Part shown: piece after piece, positions 2,028-34,784 of the stretch
How the letters are laid out: every line of letters begins with the position of its first letter
Position numbering within the stretch: position 1 is the first letter of the stretch
Virus record (IMG/VR): IMGVR_UViG_2711768064_000001
Span: 1 to 37,261 of that record
DNA length: 37,261 nt
Source of the DNA: a virus
Lineage: Duplodnaviria; Heunggongvirae; Uroviricota; Caudoviricetes
Direction: 5' to 3' (one strand)
Position numbers and translations under genes: made by a program
Notes under the pieces: generated by a model
Database searches by the model: none
The model's input: only the letters and a program-made list of their open reading frames with translations
Told to the model about the DNA's origin: nothing

Positions 2028-2554
2028 TTGCGTAACTCCGATAACTCGTTAAAACGTTCCATAAACATCCCGTAGGCCTGGCCCGGTGCCAGTGGAATCA
2101 CGTTGAACATCTCTGTTGCCGGGATGCCTTCCAGTACAGGCCAGAAAGAGCCATCATCAAGCCCGAGATCGCGGCGTTCGGTTGCCAGCATGATGAGATC
2201 GGCATATTTCACAGGCGTGCTCATAACCGGGGGTAACCCGTATTTTTCACGGATTACGGCGTCTATTTTTTCTTCCATCCGTTTATAGTCAGGAAGAAGG
2301 CGTTTCAGTGGAGCCGGGATGTCCTGGCAATACGCTTCTGTTGCATCATGCATTAACGCTTCAAAAGCAAATTCCTGCGGTACCAGCTGGCTGCAAAGCA
2401 CCGCATGTTGGGCGACGCTGTAGAAGTGTGAAAGATGTCCTGCAAAGCGACAGATATTTGAAAGGGAAACCGCGATATCGTTAATAACGATGTCGTCTTT
2501 ATTTATCCTGTCATAATAAAAATGCTTCCCGGAAAAAGTTTTAATAAATGACAT
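2018..2554 (-). CDS. HD-domain phosphohydrolase (YfbR-like 5'-deoxynucleotidase family)
   Basis: His/Asp-rich metal-binding-type segment (HLSHFYSVAQHAV...MHDATEAY); start moved to internal ATG (MSFIKTF) preceded by GGAG. Confidence 0.7.
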   Translation of the reverse strand: MSFIKTFSGKHFYYDRINKDDIVINDIAVSLSNICRFAGHLSHFYSVAQHAVLCSQLVPQEFAFEALMHDATEAYCQDIPAPLKRLLPDYKRMEEKIDAVIREKYGLPPVMSTPVKYADLIMLATERRDLGLDDGSFWPVLEGIPATEMFNVIPLAPGQAYGMFMERFNELSELRKCA

Positions 2555-3097
2555 TTTGTTCTCCACGTATATGCGCTGCACCGCGCTGAATTCGGGTAAA
2601 AGGAAGCCCTCACCGTCCGGCGATTATTGAGTCAATTACATTTCCATAAATGCCCCCGTAGGGGCGGTTAGTTTCTCCACAAAACAGAGAAGAACACCTG
2701 TGGTGGCAGCCGCCCGGATGGATTGGGTTATGAGCCCGTCGTCCGATGATGCTCTTCTCTGTTTTGTAAAAAGGACGGTACCAGCCGGAAGCAAGGGTAC
2801 AAGCTGGTACCGCCAAGACAACACACAGCATAAAGTTGTGGTGCCGGGTGCCTCCCGGTGCCTGGCGAAGGTTGTACACCAGACGGGTGGGTATCCACAG
2901 AAGGTCGACTGTCAGCCTCAACCTTAACCCGCGTGCGCTGAGCCGCATTCACCACAACGCTAAGGATTCTCTCTGGTTGAAAATACTTAGCTGTTATGTG
3001 CCTGCTTTTAGCCACATCAGGCGAGGTGGACCTGGTTATTCCCCAACAACAAGGATTCGGTATAATCTGGATATCCCAACAACAGGTAGGAAGGAAA

Positions 3098-3181
3098 TAT
3101 GTACGTAGATAGCAATGAAAAATTTCATGTTCCGGTAAATCAGAGACCAGCACCGATCCCTGAGCCGAAACCTGAAATGTA
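3098..3181 (+). CDS. Small proline-rich peptide (27 aa), paralog a
   Basis: ATG at 3098 with AGGAAGGA RBS; C-terminal motif HVPVNQRPAPIPEPKPE shared with two downstream small ORFs. Confidence 0.35.
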
Positions 3182-3192
3182 AGGGAATAGAG

Positions 3193-3672
3193 ATGACTCG
3201 AGACGATCTAGCATTCGATATTCATTATTCTTTCTTTCTTGAGAAAATGAATTACACCCTTTTAAATCGGATAGACAAGAGCATAACTCTTGTTCTCATT
3301 GTCTTGGGCTTTTCTGTTTTTGCGCCATATAGCAATATGTTTATTTTTGGCGCATCTGTAGCTATTTTGTCGGTGCTTCAATTGGTATACCAATTTGGGC
3401 AGGAAGCTGGCTTATCAAAGGAACAGATGCGACAGTATAAAAGGTTGATTGTTGAGTTTTCCTCCCTTTCTGATGACGAACTACGCACTCGGTTTTTAAA
3501 GGTTCAAGACGCTGATAGTAATCCATGGAGATCTTTACAAGATGCTGCGTTCAAACGGACCTGTATTGCGCTGGGACGTGTTGATGAGTCAGAAATATCA
3601 TTCATGCATAGCGTTATCGCATGGTTTGCTGGAGATTTGCCTCGGTCAAAAAGGTGTAATAATGACAAATAG
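3193..3672 (+). CDS. Membrane protein with two predicted TM helices; SieB-like superinfection-exclusion candidate (by position and topology)
   Basis: 159-aa AT-rich ORF convergent with the repressor gene; hydrophobic segments ITLVLIVLGFSVFAPY and IFGASVAILSVLQLVY; own TATAAT box upstream and terminator downstream. Confidence 0.6.
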   Translation: MTRDDLAFDIHYSFFLEKMNYTLLNRIDKSITLVLIVLGFSVFAPYSNMFIFGASVAILSVLQLVYQFGQEAGLSKEQMRQYKRLIVEFSSLSDDELRTRFLKVQDADSNPWRSLQDAAFKRTCIALGRVDESEISFMHSVIAWFAGDLPRSKRCNNDK

Positions 3673-3778
3673 AATTCCCATAATCCCTAACCATGTACCT
3701 CCAAAGCCCAGACCACCATCACCAAAGTCACACAGGCTTTATGAGTATGAATTAATAATGGATTCTATATTGAGATGA
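3662..3778 (+). CDS. Small proline-rich peptide (38 aa), paralog b
   Basis: ATG 3662 overlaps the stop of the membrane-protein gene; motif NHVPPKPRPPSPKS. Confidence 0.3.
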   Translation: MTNRIPIIPNHVPPKPRPPSPKSHRLYEYELIMDSILR

Positions 3779-3782
3779 CCAA

Positions 3783-3872
3783 ATGAATGCATTTATATAT
3801 ACATGGAAAGAGGATCATATACCCTTAAAACCTCGTCCTTCACCGCCAGAACCGAAGCCAAAATCCCGTTAA
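3783..3872 (+). CDS. Small proline-rich peptide (29 aa), paralog c
   Basis: Motif HIPLKPRPSPPEPKPKS near-identical at peptide level to paralog a but with synonymous codon differences. Confidence 0.3.
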   Translation: MNAFIYTWKEDHIPLKPRPSPPEPKPKSR

Positions 3873-3904
3873 GTGTTGGGGATCTCCAGATTGTTAAAGA
3901 GCGA

Positions 3905-4079: not shown

Positions 4080-4754
4080 TTAGGCTTTGATTTTGTATCT
4101 TCTTGGTTTTCCTGAGAAAATCACTGTACCAATTATAGAGCAATTACCGTTGATCTTAATGTAAGGCTCAGGCCAGTTTGGGTTTAACGCTTTGAGATAA
4201 CGCTGTGTCCCATCTTCTATCAACCTTTTGAAGGTGGTTTCACCTGTATCGTGCATCAATGCAATAACGTCGTCACCGTGGCAGGCAGGTACTTCAGGAT
4301 CGACAAAAATCATGTCTCCCGGGCGGTACTCATCAATCATTGAATCACCTATCACCCGCAAGATATAAGTCATTTCCCCACAGGGTACAGGGCAGGGATA
4401 CGTTTCTGCTGTGCTCAAATCAACCTCAGAATATCCAACTTCTTTCCATGCTCCGGCCTGTACCCATGATATGACAGGGACTAATGTGATTTGTTTATTA
4501 GTGATTGAAACATCAGGTTTTTTTGTGATGTTCGTTGTCTGGTGTTCTTGATCGAGCCATCCGACAGGCAGGTCGAAACATTTTTCGATGTGTCGTGCCA
4601 TGCTGTCACCGATATTTTTAGTAGCACCATCTCCCATAAACCTGCTGGTCTGGGTTGGCTCGCGATCAATCATAGTGGCAAAGGAAGAATTCCCGCCAAC
4701 ACCATCTCTCAGTTTTCTGGCGTTAGACCGCCGGATGTCATGGATTGTTTTCAT
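4080..4754 (-). CDS. CI-type prophage repressor with C-terminal S24 (LexA-like) peptidase domain
   Basis: 224 aa; N-terminal HTH-like region, C-terminal VIGDSM...GD..FVD segment typical of S24 autocleaving repressors; divergent from Cro-like gene. Confidence 0.85.
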   Translation of the reverse strand: MKTIHDIRRSNARKLRDGVGGNSSFATMIDREPTQTSRFMGDGATKNIGDSMARHIEKCFDLPVGWLDQEHQTTNITKKPDVSITNKQITLVPVISWVQAGAWKEVGYSEVDLSTAETYPCPVPCGEMTYILRVIGDSMIDEYRPGDMIFVDPEVPACHGDDVIALMHDTGETTFKRLIEDGTQRYLKALNPNWPEPYIKINGNCSIIGTVIFSGKPRRYKIKA

Positions 4755-4769
4755 AACGAAATTAAAACC

Positions 4770-4842
4770 CTTGTACCGTTAAGGTACAAGTATCTTGAAG
4801 GTTCATTTCAATCATGTAATATGTACACCGGAGGTACATATT
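4770..4842. promoter_or_regulatory. Operator region between repressor and cro-like gene (OR analog)
   Basis: Two palindromes: CTTGTACC-GTTAA-GGTACAAG (4770-4790) and AATATGTAC-N7-GTACATATT (4818-4842). Confidence 0.5.
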
Positions 4843-25722: not shown

Positions 25723-27550
25723 ATTTGAGCTTAAGGCGTTGATCACCGGTGTCGACAGGCTTTCTCCCGCGCTGTCGAAAATGCAAAAGAAAATCCGGGG
25801 ATTTAAACGCCAGGCGGAAGAAGCGTCACAGGGTGGGCTGGCGCTTGGTGGCGGACTGGCTGCGGGTCTGACGCTTTCCCTGAAATCTTATGCCGATCAG
25901 GAAAACGCCGCCACCGGGCTGAAAGTTGCCATGATGGATGCGAACGGTGAGGTCGGAAAGAGCTTTCAGGACATCAATAAACTGGCTATTGGCCTGGGTA
26001 ACCAGCTACCCGGTACAACGGCTGATTTCCAGAACATGATGCAGATGCTGGTGCGTCAGGGGATCCCGGCAGAAAACATTCTGGGTGGTGTGGGTAAAGC
26101 GACAGCTTATCTTGCGGTACAACTGAAAAAAACACCGGAAGCGGCTGCCGAGTTTGCCGCAAAGATGCAGGATGCTACCGGAACGGCCTCAGAAGACATG
26201 ATGGGGCTGTTCGACACAATTCAGAAGGCGTTTTATCTGGGCGTTGACGACACCAACATGCTGTCATTCTTCACTAAAACCAGCTCTGTTCTGAAGATGG
26301 TGAATAAGGACGGTCTTCAGGCTGCACAGAGTCTTGCCCCCATCAGTGTCATGATGGATCAGATGGGGATGAACGGGGAGTCGGCAGGTAATGCCCTGCG
26401 AAAAGTTATCCAGTCCGGATTAAGCGTTAAGAAAATCAGGGACGTCAATAAAATCATGGCCCGCCAGAAACTCGGGGTACAGCTCGATTTTACTGATGGC
26501 AAAGGGAGTTTTGGCGGTCTTGATAACATGTTCAGGCAACTGGCAAAGCTGCGAAAACTGACCGACGTTAAGCGAACCGGTGTACTTAAGGCAATATTTG
26601 GTGATGATGCCGAAACCCTTCAGGTGGTCAATGCTCTGATCGATAAAGGAAAGGATGGTTACGATCAGATCCAGCAGAAGATGCATAAACAGGCCAGCCT
26701 GAATAAACGTGTTCAGGCACAGCTTGGTACGCTGTCCAACCTGTGGGAGGCAATGACGGGGACCGCAACTAACGGTCTTGCAGCTATTGGCGGCGCATTT
26801 TCTGGTGACGCTAAAAATATCACGCAATGGCTGGGGGAGTTGGGGGAAAAATTCACGAAGTTTGCGGATGAAAATCCCCGGGTTATTCGCGGCGTCGTCG
26901 GGCTTGCTGCCGGTCTTGCGATTCTGAAACTGGGATTGATGGGCGTGGGCAGTGCCATCAGCATTGTCAGCAGGATCATGTCGATGACGCCGATTGGCAT
27001 GATTGCGACGGCGATAGCCCTGGCTGCGGGATTAATTATCACTAACTGGGATGTTGTCGGACCTTATTTCAAGAAGCTCTGGGAAACCATTGGTCCTTAT
27101 TTTGAGGCTGGCTGGGAACTCCTTAAGAAAGTTTTTGCCTGGTCGCCGCTGGGGATGGTGATCAATAACTGGGGGCCGGTTGTTAAGTGGTTTCAGGATA
27201 TGTGGGACAAGCTGAAGCCAATTATTGAGTGGTTTACCGACAGTTCCGGAGACACGGTCGATGCCATTAACTCTGCGCAGTGGGGCGCGGGTGCTTATGA
27301 TGCTTATGGGACGGGAATACCGGCACGGGGATACACACCTTATCCGGCGGTGGATCCGGCTCAGTCAAACAACGCCTCCGATGCCACAGGCCCGAATCCC
27401 TTCATGATTAACAAAGCTTCTGCGCCAAAAGTTGATGGTGAGATCAAGGTATCTTTTGTGAATTCGCCTCCGGGGATGCGGGTTATGGAAACGCGATCCA
27501 GCGGTTTTGATATAAATCACGATGTTGGCTATACGCATATTGGCAGATGA
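25715..27550 (+). CDS. Tail tape measure protein
   Basis: 611 aa, Gly/Ala-rich repeats and TM-like segments, after chaperone. Confidence 0.85.
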   Translation: MAEFELKALITGVDRLSPALSKMQKKIRGFKRQAEEASQGGLALGGGLAAGLTLSLKSYADQENAATGLKVAMMDANGEVGKSFQDINKLAIGLGNQLPGTTADFQNMMQMLVRQGIPAENILGGVGKATAYLAVQLKKTPEAAAEFAAKMQDATGTASEDMMGLFDTIQKAFYLGVDDTNMLSFFTKTSSVLKMVNKDGLQAAQSLAPISVMMDQMGMNGESAGNALRKVIQSGLSVKKIRDVNKIMARQKLGVQLDFTDGKGSFGGLDNMFRQLAKLRKLTDVKRTGVLKAIFGDDAETLQVVNALIDKGKDGYDQIQQKMHKQASLNKRVQAQLGTLSNLWEAMTGTATNGLAAIGGAFSGDAKNITQWLGELGEKFTKFADENPRVIRGVVGLAAGLAILKLGLMGVGSAISIVSRIMSMTPIGMIATAIALAAGLIITNWDVVGPYFKKLWETIGPYFEAGWELLKKVFAWSPLGMVINNWGPVVKWFQDMWDKLKPIIEWFTDSSGDTVDAINSAQWGAGAYDAYGTGIPARGYTPYPAVDPAQSNNASDATGPNPFMINKASAPKVDGEIKVSFVNSPPGMRVMETRSSGFDINHDVGYTHIGR

Positions 27551-27566
27551 CGGAACCAGATATAAT
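27540..27566 (+). promoter_or_regulatory. Candidate sigma70 promoter for tail-module moron
   Basis: TTGGCA (27540-27545), 15-nt spacer, TATAAT (27561-27566), overlapping tape-measure stop. Confidence 0.4.
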
Positions 27567-27602
27567 TTGTCTTTAAGTTTGTTATCAACTGAAGGGAAAT
27601 CT

Positions 27603-27980
27603 ATGGGTCTGTTACATGCCATTATAGGTAATGCCGGTGAAATTAATGCATCAGATGCACAACAGGAATTAGGGGCTGTTTTAGGTGAGGGAGAAAATGT
27701 CGAACTTGCCTATAAACTCATTCGTGACCAAATTATTCTGACTAACAGAAGGTTAATTTTTATTGATAAGCAGGGTGTCACAGGGAAAAAAGTCGAGTAT
27801 CGTTCGATTCCATATAAATCTGTGACAAACTTTTCTATTGAAACCGCCGGGCATCTTGATCTTGATGCTGAAATGAAGATATGGATTTCTGGTATTGCAG
27901 AACCGATAAAAAAACAGTTCAGTAAAGGAGCAAACATTTATAAATTGCAGGCCCATCTGGCTCAAAAAATAGCAGGGTAA
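27603..27980 (+). CDS. Moron protein, bacterial PH-domain-like
   Basis: 125 aa AT-rich ORF with AAGGGA RBS; segment ILTNRRLIFIDKQGVTGKKVEYRSIPYKSV resembles bacterial PH domains. Confidence 0.55.
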   Translation: MGLLHAIIGNAGEINASDAQQELGAVLGEGENVELAYKLIRDQIILTNRRLIFIDKQGVTGKKVEYRSIPYKSVTNFSIETAGHLDLDAEMKIWISGIAEPIKKQFSKGANIYKLQAHLAQKIAG

Positions 27981-28004
27981 ACCTTACATTAATTTATGTC
28001 TTTC

Positions 28005-28028
28005 ATGCCCACTTCGGTGGGCATTTTT
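28005..28028 (+). terminator. Rho-independent terminator with UUCG tetraloop
   Basis: Perfect stem ATGCCCAC/GTGGGCAT, loop TTCG, T-run. Confidence 0.65.
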
Positions 28029-28043
28029 ATATCCGGAGTTTAT

Positions 28044-29372
28044 ATGACGTGGAAAGGCAGGCTTCAGGACGCGTCATTTCGCGGCGTGCCGTTTAAGGTC
28101 GAAGAAGAAAGTGCGGGAACAGGTCGCCGTGTGGAAACGCACGAATACCCGAACCGCGACAAACCCTATACCGAAGACCTGGGGAAAATCACTTTCCGCC
28201 CGTCCATCACGGCTTATGTGGTGGGAGATGACTGCTTTGACCAGCGTGATCGCCTGATTGAAGCGCTGAATAAACCCGGTCCCGGCACGCTTGTCCACCC
28301 GACATACGGTGAGCTGAAAGTCTGTGTTGACGGGGAAGTTCGGGTCAGCACATCGAAGAGTGAAGGGCGAATTGTCCGCTTTGACCTGAAGTTTGTCGAA
28401 GCAGGAGAACTCTATTACCCCACATCAGGCGCGGCGACGGCGCAGACGCTGATGTCATCCTGTTCTGCACTGGATGACTGCATCAGTGACAGCTTCAGCG
28501 GTTTCAGTATCGATGGTGTGGCGGATTTCGTGCAGAACGACGTTATCGGTAATGCCAGCATAATGCTGGGGTATGTTTCTGATGCGATGAAAGTGGTGGA
28601 TTCTGCCGTATCGGATGCCGCCAGGCTGTTGCAGGGGGATATCTCGGTACTTCTGCCGCCGCCATCGTCAGGCAAAAATTTCGTTGAGCAGGTGCAGAAA
28701 ATGTGGCGTACCGGGAAACGCCTTTATGGTAACGCCAGCGACCTGGTCACCATGATCAAAACGCTTTCTGGTGTCAGCCTCGGCAGCGATTTGCAACCGC
28801 GCGGCGTCTGGAAAACGGACAGTAAAACCACCGCCACAGCGACGCAGCAGCGTAACATGGTTGCCAGCACCCTTCGTACGACTGCAATCAGCGAAGCGGC
28901 GTATGCCGTTACCCGATTGCCTGCGCCAACAACTTCTGCGGTGATGCAGAATGCCGCAGTGGGGCAGTCAACAACACCCGCGCAGAGCTCCGGCTGGCCT
29001 GCCGTCACGCATCCGGTGCTGAACAATGCACCGGCGGTGAAAAACACGGTTGACCTGCCAACGTGGGAAGAACTGACCGACATTCGCGACACACTGAATA
29101 CGGCAATTGATAAGGAGTTGTCCCGTACAACCAGTGATGCGCTGTTTCTGGCGCTGCGCCGGGTGAAAGCAGATCTGAATGCGGATATCAACACGCGCCT
29201 TGAACAGTCTGCTCGGATCATTCAGCGCACGCCGGATGAGGTTTTACCCGCGCTGGTGCTGGCGGCGACCTGGTTTGATAACGCGGCGCGTGACGCGGAC
29301 ATTATCCGGCGTAATGCCATTACGCATCCCGGCTTTGTGCCGGTGATCCCTCTGAAGGTGCCAGTGCAATGA
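28044..29372 (+). CDS. DNA circularization protein (Mu gpN-like)
   Basis: Start MTWKGRLQDASFRGVPFKV after terminator; Mu-like tail gene order. Confidence 0.75.
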   Translation: MTWKGRLQDASFRGVPFKVEEESAGTGRRVETHEYPNRDKPYTEDLGKITFRPSITAYVVGDDCFDQRDRLIEALNKPGPGTLVHPTYGELKVCVDGEVRVSTSKSEGRIVRFDLKFVEAGELYYPTSGAATAQTLMSSCSALDDCISDSFSGFSIDGVADFVQNDVIGNASIMLGYVSDAMKVVDSAVSDAARLLQGDISVLLPPPSSGKNFVEQVQKMWRTGKRLYGNASDLVTMIKTLSGVSLGSDLQPRGVWKTDSKTTATATQQRNMVASTLRTTAISEAAYAVTRLPAPTTSAVMQNAAVGQSTTPAQSSGWPAVTHPVLNNAPAVKNTVDLPTWEELTDIRDTLNTAIDKELSRTTSDALFLALRRVKADLNADINTRLEQSARIIQRTPDEVLPALVLAATWFDNAARDADIIRRNAITHPGFVPVIPLKVPVQ

Positions 29373-30448
29373 ACGACAATGTCACGCTACGGGTAAATGG
29401 CCGGGAGTGGAATGGCTGGACATCGGTGCGCATCGGTGCCGGTATTGAACGGCTGGCGCGGGATTTCAGTGTGGAGATCACCCGCCAGTGGCCGGGAGAT
29501 GAGGGTATCACCACGCTTCAGCCGCGCATTAAAAACGGTTCAAAAGTGGAAGTGCTGATTGGTGATGAGCTGGTGATCACCGGCTGGGTGGAGACGACTC
29601 CCGTTCGTTACGATGCCCGTTCGGTCAGCACCGGTATTGCCGGACGTAGTCTGACCGCTGACCTGATTGACTGTGCAGCCGAACCGACACAGTTTAACGG
29701 ACGATCGCTGGTACAGATTGCGCAGGCGCTTGCTGCGCCTTTCGGCATTGAGGTGGTGAACAACGGTGCGCCGTCGGGCGTTATTCCTGATGTCCAGCCT
29801 GATCACGGCGAAACGGTGATTGAGGTGATCAACAAAATACTCGGTCAGCAGCAGGCACTGGCTTACGACGACCCGCACGGCAGGCTGGTGATTGGCGGTA
29901 TTGGCTCAACGCGGGCACATACCACGCTTGTACTCGGGGAAAACATCCTTTCCTGTGATACGGAGAAGAGTATCCGGGAGCGGTTTTCTGTTTACCAGGT
30001 GGCGGGGCAGCGTGCCGGAAACGACGATGATTTCGGTGAGGCCACCACCACCGCGCTGCGGGCCCGCACAGAGGACGCATTTATTTCCCGTTACCGTCCG
30101 ATGTATATCAGGCAGACAGGGCAGGCCACGGGGGCAGGCTGTATTGCGCGTGCTGACTTTGAAGCCCGACAACGGGCGGCGCGGACGGATGAAACCACCT
30201 ATGTGGTGCAGGGCTGGCGACAGGGTAACGGTACGCTGTGGCAGCCCAACCAGCGGGTGATTGTCTTCGATCCGGTCTGTGGTTTCGACAATACCGAACT
30301 GCTTGTTTCGGAAGTCACGTTTACTCAGGACCAGAACGGCACCCTGACGGAAATCCGTGTCGGTCCGCCTGATGCTTATCTGCCTGAACCCGAAGCCTCC
30401 GGCGCGCGGAAAAAGAAAAAAGCCAGAGTACAGGAGGACCCGTTCTGA
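29369..30448 (+). CDS. Mu gpP-like tail/baseplate hub protein
   Basis: Gene order, 359 aa. Confidence 0.7.
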   Translation: MNDNVTLRVNGREWNGWTSVRIGAGIERLARDFSVEITRQWPGDEGITTLQPRIKNGSKVEVLIGDELVITGWVETTPVRYDARSVSTGIAGRSLTADLIDCAAEPTQFNGRSLVQIAQALAAPFGIEVVNNGAPSGVIPDVQPDHGETVIEVINKILGQQQALAYDDPHGRLVIGGIGSTRAHTTLVLGENILSCDTEKSIRERFSVYQVAGQRAGNDDDFGEATTTALRARTEDAFISRYRPMYIRQTGQATGAGCIARADFEARQRAARTDETTYVVQGWRQGNGTLWQPNQRVIVFDPVCGFDNTELLVSEVTFTQDQNGTLTEIRVGPPDAYLPEPEASGARKKKKARVQEDPF

Positions 30449-30996
30449 TGAGGACGATTGAAGCCATGCAGCGACAACTCCTCGGCCTGATTGGGCGGGC
30501 CGTGGTGAAAAGCATCAGTGCCGCCACGAAATGTCAGACCGTGGATGTGTCCCTGATTGCCGGTGAACCCAAAGCAGGGGTTGAACATCTTGAACCCTAC
30601 GGTTTTACCTCAAGGGCAAACAGCGGTGCGGAAGCGGTGGTGTTGTTTCCGGATGGCGACCGTTCTCATGCGGTGGTTGTTACGGTGTCGGACCGGCGCT
30701 ACCGCCTGAAAGGGCTGCAGACGGGTGAGGTGGCTGTCTATGACGATCAGGGGCAGTCCGTGACGCTGACCCGGGAGGGGATCGTGGTGGACGGTGCAGG
30801 TAAAACGATCACGTTTCGCAATGCACCTGAAGCACGTTTTGAAATGGACCTGGAAGTGACAGGACAGGTGAAAGACCTGTGCGACTCCGGCGGCACCACC
30901 ATGTCAGCGATGCGGCTTGCCTATAACGGGCATCGTCACAGAGAGAACGGTCAGGGCAGTAACACCGACAAACCTGATAAAGCGATGGAGGCATGA
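30448..30996 (+). CDS. Baseplate assembly protein V-like spike (Mu gp45-like)
   Basis: Gene order, 182 aa. Confidence 0.65.
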   Translation: MRTIEAMQRQLLGLIGRAVVKSISAATKCQTVDVSLIAGEPKAGVEHLEPYGFTSRANSGAEAVVLFPDGDRSHAVVVTVSDRRYRLKGLQTGEVAVYDDQGQSVTLTREGIVVDGAGKTITFRNAPEARFEMDLEVTGQVKDLCDSGGTTMSAMRLAYNGHRHRENGQGSNTDKPDKAMEA

Positions 30997-31421
30997 TGGA
31001 ACTGTGGCTGACGGTGAACGGTAAACGCACCTGCGCCAGCGCACCGCTGGATCCGCTGACCCGCGCCGTGGTGATTTCCCTGTTTACCTGGCGGCGGGCG
31101 GAGCCTGATGACAACGCCGACGTCCCGATGGGATGGTGGGGGGATACCTGGCCTGCGGTACAGAATGACCGTTACGGCTCCCGACTGTGGCTGCTTCAGC
31201 GCAGCAAACTGACCAATCAGCTGGTGCAGACGGTAAGGGGGTATATCCGCGAATGCCTGCAATGGATGATTGATGACGGCGTGGTGTCCCGTATTGATCT
31301 GGATATTCGCCGCACCGGGATTAATGAACTGGGTAACAGTATCACTCTCTGGCGTCGTGACGGACCGGTAATGATTTCTTTTGATGATCTGTGGAGTGCG
31401 ATAACGCATGGCGGACAGTGA
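30993..31421 (+). CDS. Baseplate protein gp46-like
   Basis: Gene order, 142 aa. Confidence 0.65.
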   Translation: MMELWLTVNGKRTCASAPLDPLTRAVVISLFTWRRAEPDDNADVPMGWWGDTWPAVQNDRYGSRLWLLQRSKLTNQLVQTVRGYIRECLQWMIDDGVVSRIDLDIRRTGINELGNSITLWRRDGPVMISFDDLWSAITHGGQ

Positions 31422-32466
31422 ATTTCAGCGCCCGACGCTGGCAGAAAATATCAGTATGCTCCGTAACGATTTATTCGCCAGGCTGGACGTCAGCGACACG
31501 CTCCGGCGCATGGATGAAGACGTGCGGGCAAAGGTGTATGCGGCGGCGCTGCATACGGTTTACGGGTACATCGATTATCTGGCAATGAACATGCTGCCTG
31601 ACCTGTGCGATGAGTCCTGGCTGGCGCGACATGCTGCGATGAAACGGTGTCCGCGCAAGGGGGCCACGGCTGCCAGCGGGTATATGCGCTGGGAAGGTGT
31701 CAGCGATGGCCTGAAGGTGACTGCCGGGAGCGTGATTCAGCGCGATGACCTGGTTCAGTACACGGCAACTGCCGATGCAACCAGCTCCGGTGGTGTCCTG
31801 CGTGTGCCGATCACTTGCTCAACTACAGGCGCGGTCGGTAACGCTGACGACGGTACGGCATTAATCCTGGTCACGCCGGTGAATGGTCTGCCGTCTTCCG
31901 GTGTGGCTGACACCCTTACAGGCGGATTTGATACTGAAGAGCTGGAAACGTGGCGCGCCCGCGTCATTGAGCGGTATTACTGGACGCCTCAGGGCGGGGC
32001 TGACGGGGACTATGTCGTCTGGGCTAAAGAAGTGCCCGGCATTACCCGCGCATGGACATACCGACACTGGATGGGAACGGGGACTGTCGGTGTGATGATT
32101 GCCAGCAGTGACCTGATTAACCCCATTCCGGAAGAATCAACGGAAACGGCAGCAAGACAACATATCGGGCCACTGGCCCCGGTGGCAGGCTCTGATTTGT
32201 ATGTATTCAGGCCGGTGGCACATACGGTGGATTTTCATATCCGCGTGACGCCGGACACACCAGAAATACGGGCTGCCATTACCGCGGAGTTGCGTTCGTT
32301 CCTGCTGCGTGATGGTTATCCGCAGGGAGAACTGAAGGTATCGCGTATCAGTGAGGCGATTTCCGGTGCGAACGGGGAATACAGCCATCAGTTGCTTGCA
32401 CCGGTGGACAATATCTCCATTGCGAAAAACGAACTGGCGGTACTGGGGACGATTTCATGGACGTGA
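31408..32466 (+). CDS. Baseplate J-like protein (Mu gp47-like)
   Basis: 352 aa, gene order. Confidence 0.75.
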
Positions 32467-33041
32467 CAAACGATGATTACATCCGCCTGTTATCGGCACT
32501 GTTGCCGCCCGGTCCGGCGTGGTCAGCCAGCGATCCGGCGATTGCCGGTGCGGCACCGTCATTAACCCGTGTTCATCAGCGTGCGGATGCCCTGATGCGG
32601 GAGCTGGATCCGCGCACCACCACTGAACTGATAAACCGCTGGGAGCGTCTGTGCGGTCTGCCGGATGAATGTATTCCCGCAGGGACACAGACCCTTCGTC
32701 AGCGTCAGCAACGGCTGGATGCGAAGGTTAACCTGGCGGGCAGCATCAACGAGAATTTTTATCTTGCACAGCTTGCTGCCCTGGGCAGACCAGATGCCAA
32801 CATCACGCGATACGACAAAAGCACGTTCACCTGCTCATCGGTCTGTACTGACGCGGTGAATGCGCCGGAATGGCGGTATTACTGGCAGGTCAACATGCCA
32901 GCCGCCACAAACACCACCTGGATGACATGTGGCGATCCCTGTGATTCCGCGCTGCGTATCTGGGGCGACACCGTTGTCGAATGTGTGCTTAACAAACTCT
33001 GCCCGTCGCATACCTACGTAATTTTTAAATATCCGGAGTAA
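32457..33041 (+). CDS. Tail protein gp48-like (DUF2313)
   Basis: Gene order upstream of tail fibre. Confidence 0.6.
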
Positions 33042-33044
33042 TCC

Positions 33045-33791
33045 ATGCATCGTATAGACACGAAAACCGCGCAGAAGGATAAGTTCGGCGCGGGTAAGAA
33101 CGGTTTTACCCGTGGTAACCCCCAGACCGGCACACCTGCCACCGATCTGGATGATGACTACTTTGACATGTTGCAGGAAGAGCTTTGTGGCGTGGTGGAG
33201 GCATCCGGTGCCAGCCTGGAGAAGGGGCGAAACGACCAGTTGCTTACCGCGCTTCGTGCTCTGCTGTTAAGCCGCAAGAATCCGTTTGGTGATATCAAAT
33301 CGGATGGCACGGTGAAAACGGCTCTCGAAAACCTTGGTTTGGGAGAAGGTGCTCCAGCTATTGGCGTTCCGTTCTTCTGGCCCTCCGCGGCAATGCCAAA
33401 TACTGTAATCGACAGCTGGTCCGGTATGGTGTTTTTGAAGTTCAACGGGGCGAAATTTTCTGCCTCTAATTACCCTGTGCTGGCGAAAGTGTTTCCTTCG
33501 CTGGTATTACCTGAAGCCCGCGGTGATTTCATTCGTATCTGGGATGACGGGCGAGGTGCAGATGGTGGTCGCGAATTATTAAGCTGGCAGGAAGCTACAA
33601 ACTTTTCTCAGTTTGCCGGGAATATAGGCGGAGGTGCGGGACACGCAATTAACTTTCATGATGGCATCGCCGGAAATCAGCCAGGATTTTCACGATTTAA
33701 TTTCACCAGTAACTCTGTGGGTGATGGTGTGAGTTTTGTTGCTGTCAGACCGCGAAATATTACATTTAACTTTCTGGTGAGGGCTAAATAA
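33045..33791 (+). CDS. Tail fibre protein (constant N-terminal part plus variable C-terminal part in current orientation)
   Basis: Crossover site inside the gene at 33322-33347; followed by tail fibre assembly gene. Confidence 0.75.
33322..33347. other. gix/hix-like inversion crossover site (left)
   Basis: TTCTCGAAAACC-TT-GGTTTGGGAGAA; inverted copy at 35066-35091. Confidence 0.5.
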
Positions 33792-34384
33792 TGAAACCTG
33801 TTTTTGATGAAAATGGGCTGGCTACAGTGCCGGGCGATATGCGTTGTTTTTATTATGATGCTGAAACATCTGAGTATACGGGCTGGTCTGATGAATATAT
33901 TAATACTGGCGTAAGTATGCCCGCCTGTTCCACTGGTATTGACCCTGGCGAAAACATTCCGGGAAGAGTGGCAGTATTTACAGGTAAGGGATGGAGCCAT
34001 GAAGAAGACCATCGCAATGAGACTGTTTACTCAATCGAAAATGGCGCAGCTGTTACAGTGGATTATATCGGTGCCATCAAAGACGGTTATGTCACGATTT
34101 CACCGTTAACGCCATACGATAAATGGGATGGTGAGAAATGGGTGACAGACACTGAGGCACAACACAGTGCCGCAGTAGACGCGGCAGAAGCACAGCGCCA
34201 GTCACTGATTGATGCAGCAATGGCTTCCATTAGTCTGATTCAGCTGAAATTACAGGCCGGACGGAAACTGACTCAGGCAGAAACAACCCGACTTAACGCC
34301 GTGCTGGATTACATTGACGCGGTGACGGCAACAGATACCAGCACCGCGCCGGATGTCATCTGGCCTGAACTGCCGGAGGCGTAG
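33791..34384 (+). CDS. Tail fibre assembly protein
   Basis: 197 aa after tail fibre; conserved C-terminal Tfa-like region. Confidence 0.75.
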   Translation: MKPVFDENGLATVPGDMRCFYYDAETSEYTGWSDEYINTGVSMPACSTGIDPGENIPGRVAVFTGKGWSHEEDHRNETVYSIENGAAVTVDYIGAIKDGYVTISPLTPYDKWDGEKWVTDTEAQHSAAVDAAEAQRQSLIDAAMASISLIQLKLQAGRKLTQAETTRLNAVLDYIDAVTATDTSTAPDVIWPELPEA

Positions 34385-34784
34385 GCCATTCAATATCGGG
34401 TGCTGTTGACGTATCAACACGCATCAGCAGCACACGGTATTTCTTCCATTGGGTGAGAGTTGTAGCTTCTTCATAAGTTGCGATATCAGCATCAACAGCA
34501 TCCTGACGCCAGGATATTTCACTGTCAGCTTTTTCCCGTAATTGGGATTTTTTAACTTCAGCAATAGCTATTAATTCCTTTTTGGTCGGCTGAGGAATAT
34601 CTATCAGTGCTGGTTTTCCATTCAGTGTTCCAATCTGTTTTCCTGGTGGAATATCCATAAATAACTTTTTATGTTCTTCCTCACTGACTATTACACCATC
34701 ATCAGGCCACAGACCTGATGCCTCAAATTTTTCTTTCTCCGATATGGGGAAAAAGCCATTTGCTTTAGCGCTCCATACGTACAT
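34356..34784 (-). CDS. Alternative tail fibre assembly protein (inverted orientation)
   Basis: Minus-strand ORF whose C-terminus (VDTSTAPDIEWPTPP) parallels the plus-strand Tfa C-terminus (TDTSTAPDVIWPELP). Confidence 0.7.
   Translation of the reverse strand: MYVWSAKANGFFPISEKEKFEASGLWPDDGVIVSEEEHKKLFMDIPPGKQIGTLNGKPALIDIPQPTKKELIAIAEVKKSQLREKADSEISWRQDAVDADIATYEEATTLTQWKKYRVLLMRVDTSTAPDIEWPTPPAVQAR

Follow-up and report, generated by a model that had tools for sequence, protein, structure and literature searches.

The window analysed here, a 37,261-nucleotide stretch of viral DNA (IMG/VR record IMGVR_UViG_2711768064_000001), is an SfII/SfV/ST64B-type Escherichia coli prophage, and the subject of this analysis is the tract at 2555-3097 towards its left end. 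On the left of the tract, all on the minus strand, are the integrase gene (1-1185), an excisionase region between it and a YfdR-like gene, and the YfdR-like gene itself, encoding an HD 5'-deoxynucleotidase (2018-2554, with a weak Pfam YfbR-like/HD match) and probably starting at the ATG at 2554-2552 behind the minus-strand Shine-Dalgarno sequence GGAG (2564-2561). On the right are small open-reading frames on the plus strand (3099-3900), a LexA/cI-type repressor on the minus strand (4080-4754) and the cro-like, ymfL-like and replication genes. One half of the tract belongs, as a divergent member, to known families of prophage small RNAs and the other half is an undescribed, very common RNA motif, both on the minus strand; together they probably form the non-coding leader of a leftward, early-left operon of the dicBF type, consisting of a small RNA and a processing module.

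An initial annotation, made from the letters alone, had described the tract as GC-rich and free of open-reading frames, with three inverted repeats pointing to a structured RNA or cis-acting element. The GC fraction is indeed 0.52-0.55 over 2551-3000 compared with 0.39-0.46 in the flanks, and the three repeats are all real: repeat 1 (2679-2693/2753-2767) extends to 18 nucleotides (nt) with one mismatch (2679-2696/2750-2767), which becomes a G-U pair in minus-strand RNA, repeat 2 (2776-2785/2803-2812, 10 nt) is perfect, and repeat 3 is a GC stem at 2651-2666. All three are helices of the RNA of the minus strand. Minus-strand RNA from 2768 to 2668 folds at -41.7 kcal/mol (z -5.9), with none of 200 shuffles folding equally well, and that from 3000 to 2766 gives a fold z of -4.2. 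The absence of open-reading frames holds in that none has a Pfam match and the frames are not kept in other genera, but not literally, as mechanical frames of 62-141 amino acids lie on both strands.

Repeat 1 is the outer stem, P1, of a three-way-junction module at 2679-2767 on the minus strand. Stem P1 is 18-20 bp long (2767-2748/2698-2679) and encloses P2 (2746-2742/2718-2714), P3 (2713-2710/2703-2700) and a hairpin, GGG-CUCAUAA-CCC (2737-2725, with CAU at 2732-2730), that resembles a tRNA anticodon arm. When 26 diverse copies of the module were aligned to a model of P1, P2, the 3-bp hairpin and P3, 94.7% of the alignment cells were paired, compared with 38-53% for slid partners, and P1 was ~95% paired across homologues. 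Nine pairs carry compensatory, double-sided changes (one P1 pair is C-G in 14 copies and G-C in 12), and no shuffle reached the observed covariation score. The thermodynamic fold of the window copy is the same three-way junction as the comparative model. The RNA is assigned to the minus strand because conserved G-U pairs, one of them a U-G kept in 23 of the 26 sequences, would be A-C mismatches on the opposite strand, and because a covariance model of the module (R1), matching the window just once, gives 129 bits for the minus-strand sequence compared with 34.9 for the plus. The suggestion of a structured RNA was thus sound, and the same G-U asymmetry makes an element acting at the DNA level unlikely. 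Loop-loop kissing of P3 with the downstream hairpin was considered and rejected, as matched pairs share on average 2.6 complementary bases and swapped pairs 2.5.

The module has near-constant flanks. A U-tract lies directly upstream in 126 of 129 unique contexts (in the window, P1 begins one base past it), and GGAGA follows immediately 3' in 128. In the window, the Shine-Dalgarno-like sequence GGAGAAAC (2671-2678, minus strand) stands directly 3' of P1 and is followed by repeat 3, the GC hairpin GCCCC-UACG-GGGGC (2652-2665, minus), the loop of which departs from the (U/G)GCA(G) that other genera usually have in this slot. The remainder of the 5' untranslated leader, 2555-2651, runs to the YfdR-like gene, and a promoter scan of it found no promoter-like site. 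Stx2-converting phages, mEp460 and others have only window 2654-2816 in common with this prophage, and the module is therefore a unit conserved on its own; it has no Rfam match. In E. coli GE3 (L001 462-2878), where the tract copy is 100% identical, an IS66-family insertion, ISEc23, separates the yfdR-like gene from the leader.

The E. coli form of the module is found in 2,481 of 5,426 complete E. coli genomes (46%), in up to five copies, and is annotated as RNA in none of those that carry it. A scan of one genome per species recovered the module in Escherichia, Shigella, Citrobacter, Enterobacter, Phytobacter, Kosakonia, Mixta, Atlantibacter, Buttiauxella, Leclercia, Pseudescherichia, Pseudocitrobacter, Erwinia and Klebsiella, and a pattern of the module centre matched at least 120 further viral contigs; upstream of yfdP in CPS-53 of K-12 the module is absent. 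Phage P1 (NC_005856) has two copies, at 69720-69860 and 70005-70083 (L004 2144-2284 and 2429-2507), on the sense strand of the ban operon. These overlap the upl and plp coding sequences annotated on the opposite strand, which may be mis-annotations over RNA elements.

Upstream of the module, the minus strand holds a small RNA spanning ~2958-2768, composed of a structured core, a DicF-like linker and an intrinsic terminator. The initial annotation had matched the tract to no family, and at Rfam gathering thresholds nothing is found anywhere in the window. Below them, a significant alignment with STnc100 (RF02076) takes in the full model (positions 1-206 of 206) and minus-strand 2988-2765; its 39.6 bits fall short of the 47-bit cut-off (E 6.9e-7 for 1.1 kb searched, 2.3e-5 for the window as a whole). 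A weak DicF resemblance and clear synteny with the Qin dicBF operon can be added to this. The core (2835-2958) is closed by a helix of GUUGUGGUG (2958-2950) with CACCACAAC (2843-2835), seen in the DNA as a 9-bp repeat (2835-2843/2950-2958), and contains the hairpin GCGGCUCAGCGCACGC (2946-2931), a second hairpin (2883-2861) with loop CAACCUU (2874-2868), and the hairpin CCGGG-AGGCA-CCCGG (2858-2844). At least 120 IMG/VR viral contigs have an exact copy of a 22-nt signature, CACCGGGAGGCACCCGGCACCA (2860-2839), that spans the last of these. The 82 unique cores collected share one plan, of closing helix, first hairpin, variable arm, second hairpin and invariant CCGGG-AGGCA-CCCGG, and in most of them a linker of 25-45 nt and an intrinsic terminator follow, so that the core-linker-terminator layout is common to most relatives.

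The core loop CAACCUU is complementary to AAGGUUG at 2925-2919, a candidate pseudoknot. In nearly all core variants the loop of the second hairpin matches the strand just past the first hairpin, and because more than 10 different sequence versions keep this complementarity, it seems to be a conserved pseudoknot of the STnc100 family that is not in the Rfam consensus structure; a swap control gave a weaker result, the core variants being related to one another. Ahead of the core is a short hairpin, S0 (2953-3000, CACAUAACAGCUAAG ... CUUAGCGUUGUG; inverted repeat 2959-2971/2979-2991, in the minimum-energy fold), a reduced form of the long stem that precedes the core in relatives, which is full-length in ST64B and module-like in phage P1.

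Past the core, the linker UUUAUGCUGUGUGUUGUCUUGG (2813-2834) is mostly single-stranded and is likely to be the seed or an Hfq-binding region of the small RNA. It aligns locally to K-12 DicF with a score of 33, a value equal to the maximum of 500 shuffles (mean 17.9), and shares UUGGCGGUAYCAG..UAC with it, and the terminator aligns to DicF as well; at the 5' base of the terminator hairpin the window has CUUGGCGGUACCAG where DicF has UUUGGCGGUAUCAG. The Rfam DicF model (RF00039) gives 17.1 bits (E 0.87) at 2773-2827, below its cut-off of 48, compared with 76.7 bits for K-12 DicF itself. The intrinsic terminator (2768-2812) is the perfect repeat 2, also present in the fold, with stem CGGUACCAGC (2812-2803) and GCUGGUACCG (2785-2776), then UCC and five U residues (2772-2768); ST64B has a stem of different sequence at the equivalent place.

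This small RNA shares with STnc100 and PasD the closing helix UGGUG...CACCA, the CCGGG-AGGCA-CCCGG hairpin, the order of core, linker and terminator, and a prophage location, and PasD and STnc100 align with each other (Pas preprint, 2026). It differs from STnc100 in a hairpin (the second in that comparison, GCGGCUCAGCGCACGC vs. CCCCU-GUGCGG-AGGGG), in its DicF-like linker, and in place: STnc100 and PasD are described from the late region, close to Q, stx and lysis genes, whereas the window copy lies in the early-left leader, and it is for this reason an early-left variant of the STnc100/PasD type. STnc100 copies are transcribed in enterohaemorrhagic E. coli, one of them confirmed by Northern blot (PMC5331693), and PasD was found by Hfq RIL-seq, with Hfq-dependent stability (PMC8550237). 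By analogy, the window RNA would be expressed and would bind Hfq.

Some other prophage RNAs were compared and set aside. The abundant, Northern-confirmed ncR1085800 and ncR1481381 of EDL933 are located in the tellurite-resistance island, and PasB is described among structural genes. Elsewhere in the window, 34405-34588 on the minus strand resembles Rfam IS009 (RF02111) over the full length of the model, although at 51.5 bits (E 4e-9) it stays below the cut-off of 117; IS009 matches are common near PasB, among phage structural genes (Pas preprint). Above-threshold isrK (RF01394) matches occur a few kb away from the module in ST64B (L003 5232-5308, plus) and an Stx2c phage (L005 26-102, minus), and there is none in the window itself.

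The closest known design is that of the Qin dicBF operon, of the same pL-like kind and likewise running leftward from the immunity region, where a long stem, a structured core, and DicF with its terminator are followed by a 15-bp long-range stem (GUGAAUUUUGUGAUG / CAUCACAAAAUUCAU) right past the U-tract. The position of the window small RNA and its flanking architecture match those of Qin DicF. The post-terminator stem of Qin encloses an STnc100-like core which has a 28-nt block near-identical to the window and a compensatory CCUGG/CCAGG change in the invariant hairpin. This core, in the dicF-dicB spacer (NC_000913.3 ~1649443-1649592; L273 2944-3093), is unannotated and scores 34.4 bits with Rfam STnc100 (E 1e-5). 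The order of parts differs, as Qin has another core before DicF and the STnc100-like core after it, and what the post-terminator stem of the window encloses is the anticodon-like junction. The core before DicF belongs to a second structured type (GUGGUAAUCCGCGAAAUGGCGCGGCGGUAAGUAUGGC...GGUUGACCAUACGCCU; L273 2757-2880), without an Rfam family of its own, which also opens the phage P1 ban leader (L004 1160-1260) and precedes the module in Stx2 phages (L005 ~2300-2500) and Erwinia (L262).

Qin DicF is cut out of a polycistronic transcript, its 190-nt form needing RNase III and its 53-nt form RNase E (bioRxiv 10.1101/2023.04.14.536235), and RNase III also yields a form of 72 nt that extends 19 nt beyond the terminator (PMC5069750). 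Mapped by length, the published ends of the 190-nt and 72-nt forms fall into the pre-core long stem and the post-terminator stem. The equivalent of the S0 long stem thus lies at an inferred RNase III site in Qin, and P1 of the window sits at the second cut position, after the terminator. P1 also fits a duplex of about two helical turns flanking a small RNA, as in the RNase III stems of the Qin dicBF type, and it is in this position and length that the case for RNase III cleavage of P1 lies, since by sequence the Qin stems are weakly similar to the module (R1 12 bits).

On this basis we favour, with reasonable but not high confidence, an early-operon leader of the prophage that is processed to release a small RNA. 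Leftward transcripts would fold the STnc100-like core and most would stop at 2768-2772, giving a DicF/STnc100-type small RNA of ~190-225 nt which, by analogy with DicF and STnc100/PasD, would bind Hfq and could be shortened by RNase E to a DicF-like form. Transcripts reading through would fold the module, and RNase III would cut P1, parting the small RNA from the downstream messenger of the YfdR-like gene, then xis and int, and setting the 5' end and stability of that messenger. The initial annotation had offered a processing leader for the leftward operon as one of several guesses, and this comes close to the explanation we prefer, with the Qin comparison in its support.

Several points weigh against this interpretation. 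Both the STnc100 and the DicF scores fall below their Rfam cut-offs; the RNase III argument rests on position and stem length and not on sequence homology, with the Qin cuts themselves mapped by length only and the Qin stems weakly similar to the module. A test of pairing with ftsZ was uninformative, as the duplex energy of DicF is itself no better than that of shuffles (z -1.4; window RNA, z +0.7). No leftward sigma-70-like promoter was found in 2940-3130, even at 8 of 12 matches; the leftward transcript and the expression of the locus are presumed, and no cI-type operator occurs outside OR in the whole window. Finally, RNase III processing leaves the invariant anticodon-like hairpin and GGAGAA unexplained. 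To our knowledge RNase III needs neither, and a second function of the module is suggested for that reason.

The likeness of the hairpin, found by a literature search with the literal string, is to the initiator tRNA: GGGCUCAUAACCC is the anticodon stem-loop of E. coli tRNA-fMet, with its three G-C pairs and CUCAUAA loop, and CGGGCUCAUAACCC is identical to metY tRNA-fMet over 14 bases, beyond which the metY region has no further similarity. The species scan had left 13 hairpin bases unspecified, yet all 27 real matches keep GGG, CUCAU and CCC (GGGCUCAU..CCC), varying only at loop positions 37-38, and nine chance matches in unrelated phyla carry unrelated inserts at the hairpin position. Both copies in phage P1 keep GGG, UCAU and CCC while other loop bases differ. 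As RNase III is not known to need such a hairpin, we regard it as functionally selected, and the most likely candidates for a partner are the 30S subunit with initiation factors, or another factor that reads the tRNA-fMet anticodon arm.

A tentative alternative, compatible with RNase III processing, is that the module mainly mimics the initiator anticodon arm and acts through the mimicry. In one version it would dock on the 30S subunit, with GGAGAA on the anti-Shine-Dalgarno and the GGG/CCC-CAU hairpin in or near the P site, and so trap, protect or enhance the leader; in another it would titrate, or be cut by, a reader of the tRNA-fMet anticodon arm, such as initiation factor 3, methionyl-tRNA synthetase or the VapC/MvpT-type nucleases of enteric plasmids, VapC being, we assume, specific for this arm. 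The 14-nt identity, the retention of GGG, CUCAU and CCC where the scan had left them free and in the diverged phage P1 copies, and the near-universal GGAGA after the stem all speak for it, as does the real tRNA gene in the STnc100-like core slot of Phytobacter ursingii prophages, a tRNA-Ile with anticodon AAU (ARAGORN; L235 2210-2288, minus; L263 1186-1264, plus), which has the upstream long stem to one side and linker, terminator and module to the other. On the other hand, no start codon stands at the usual distance past GGAGAA and the first downstream gene varies among phages; the anticodon stem is kept for three base pairs only and positions 37-38 may be U and C, a choice avoided by real tRNAs; ARAGORN finds no tRNA gene in the window and the Rfam tRNA model no match up to E 10; and a decoy would compete with abundant tRNA-fMet, both binding and cleavage being hypothetical. 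That the module is a distinct, widespread structured-RNA family engaging translation initiation or a tRNA-fMet-specific factor through the mimic and GGAGAA is a possibility we hold as rather doubtful.

Two ideas about the hairpin were discarded: pairing of the CUCAUAA loop with UUAUGAG or with start regions (six window sites vs. four expected, none at a plausible target, and downstream start contexts differ), and a tiny open-reading frame at GUG/AUG-GAG-AAA, where one variant reads ACG.

Two leaders of E. coli itself offer parallels. In the thrS operator, the messenger leader mimics the anticodon arm of one specific tRNA; as in the window, a leader hairpin equals a specific tRNA anticodon stem-loop and lies beside a Shine-Dalgarno-like sequence, although the window mimics the initiator and its downstream gene is no synthetase and varies between phages, so that the likeness is a lead and not a test. 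The metY-nusA-infB leader has a tRNA-fMet gene, attenuators and an RNase III hairpin ahead of the first protein gene. The window resembles it in placing an RNA gene, a terminator and a long hairpin before protein genes, and in the initiator anticodon sequence, but it lacks a complete tRNA and the sequence similarity ends at the 14-nt anticodon arm.

Much less probable is that a tRNA gene, or a tRNA-derived attachment site, was caught in a processing stem and left the hairpin as a functionless remnant. Real tRNA genes do occupy equivalent slots in relatives (tRNA-Asn, -Thr and -Ile in phage P1, the tRNA-Ile of Phytobacter), and AAUCCAUCCGG after the hairpin bears a faint likeness to tRNA-fMet in its T-arm and acceptor end. 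The ban operon of phage P1 runs, in order, through a 'dicF-like region', a long stem, tRNA-Asn, tRNA-Thr, module, core-like element, second module, STnc100-like core and tciA. A functionless copy would be expected to decay first, whereas, across 14 genera and phage P1, conservation within the module is highest at the hairpin and the helices around it change by compensation, and similarity to the metY region stops at 14 nt. Separately, the STnc100-like core itself looks cloverleaf-like, with an acceptor-like closing helix and a T-arm-like hairpin directly followed by CACCA.

A put-like processive antitermination RNA, which would act in cis by binding the elongating polymerase and reading through terminators into the leftward operon, had been the first guess of the initial annotation and is slightly more improbable still. 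The put RNAs of HK022 are ~70-nt structured RNAs at the start of early operons (PMC9378689), and the window RNA resembles them in being structured, encoded in cis and close to where a lambdoid early operon starts; the operon that it heads is long and contains a terminator and untranslated stretches, and the STnc100-like core lies ~25 nt before the terminator. It departs from them in fold, size, place and model similarity: the module is a three-way junction of ~90-100 nt and the core is multi-helix, against two stem-loops; the module lies after a terminator with no adjacent promoter found, not just past one; terminated small RNAs accumulate from relatives of the core; and R1, a model of the module in which the core is not modelled separately, gives at most 8 bits in HK022 27500-34000, a stretch inferred from PMC9378689, as putL and putR are not annotated in the HK022 record. 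UGCUCUU, which the 3' arm of P1 contains, was rejected as a boxA/nut site because its bases covary with the 5' arm.

Lastly, a real or decayed protein gene, whether the PGAP call ('frameshifted hypothetical protein'), SfII_35 (2610-2948, minus) or the plus-strand frame 2700-2927, is highly improbable and largely refuted by sequence comparison, in spite of the frames called here by PGAP and the SfII annotators and of PHROG families for two of them (2700-2927, plus, phrog_3651, E 1e-47; 2636-2824, minus, phrog_33599, E 7e-14; functions unknown), because no frame of the tract has a Pfam match, the 112-amino-acid frame is not kept in ST64B, the 12 hairpin-to-GGAGA lengths are spread 4/4/4 over the three classes modulo 3, and in other genera a stop interrupts the same frames within 10-30 codons of the conserved core, on either side; substitutions, moreover, compensate RNA helices. 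Phrog_3651 and phrog_33599 are probably spurious calls over conserved RNA-coding DNA.

Beyond the leader, the region at 3030-3097 appears to be an upstream control region, of uncertain role. It carries direct repeats CCCAACAACA(A/G)GG at 3042-3054 and 3075-3086, which flank the only promoter-like site near the tract, on the plus strand (-35 TTCCCC at 3039-3044, -10 TATAAT at 3061-3066), facing a 27-codon micro-open-reading frame (ATG 3099, stop 3182, plus). Because both repeats are conserved in an Enterobacter prophage (L234), they may be binding sites of a regulator. Two palindromic operator-like sites of the TTGTACC-N5-GGTACAA type (4771-4789 and 4821-4839) lie between the repressor and cro-like genes, and there is no third palindrome anywhere in the window, which suggests that the leftward operon has no OL-type operator.

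An RNA carried by 46% of complete E. coli genomes, by at least 14 enterobacterial genera and by phage P1 has thus been labelled 'hypothetical protein' or left unannotated. STnc100/PasD, DicF and the RNase III sites of dicBF, treated separately in the literature, appear to belong to a single modular plan of leader, with long stems on either side of tRNA genes or tRNA-like cores. The copy of the initiator anticodon arm is an unexpected lead on how temperate phages control or protect an operon with xis, int and host-modifying genes, and if the mimicry is true, its use by phage leaders would go beyond RNase III processing, serving the control or protection of early operons that are long and partly untranslated.

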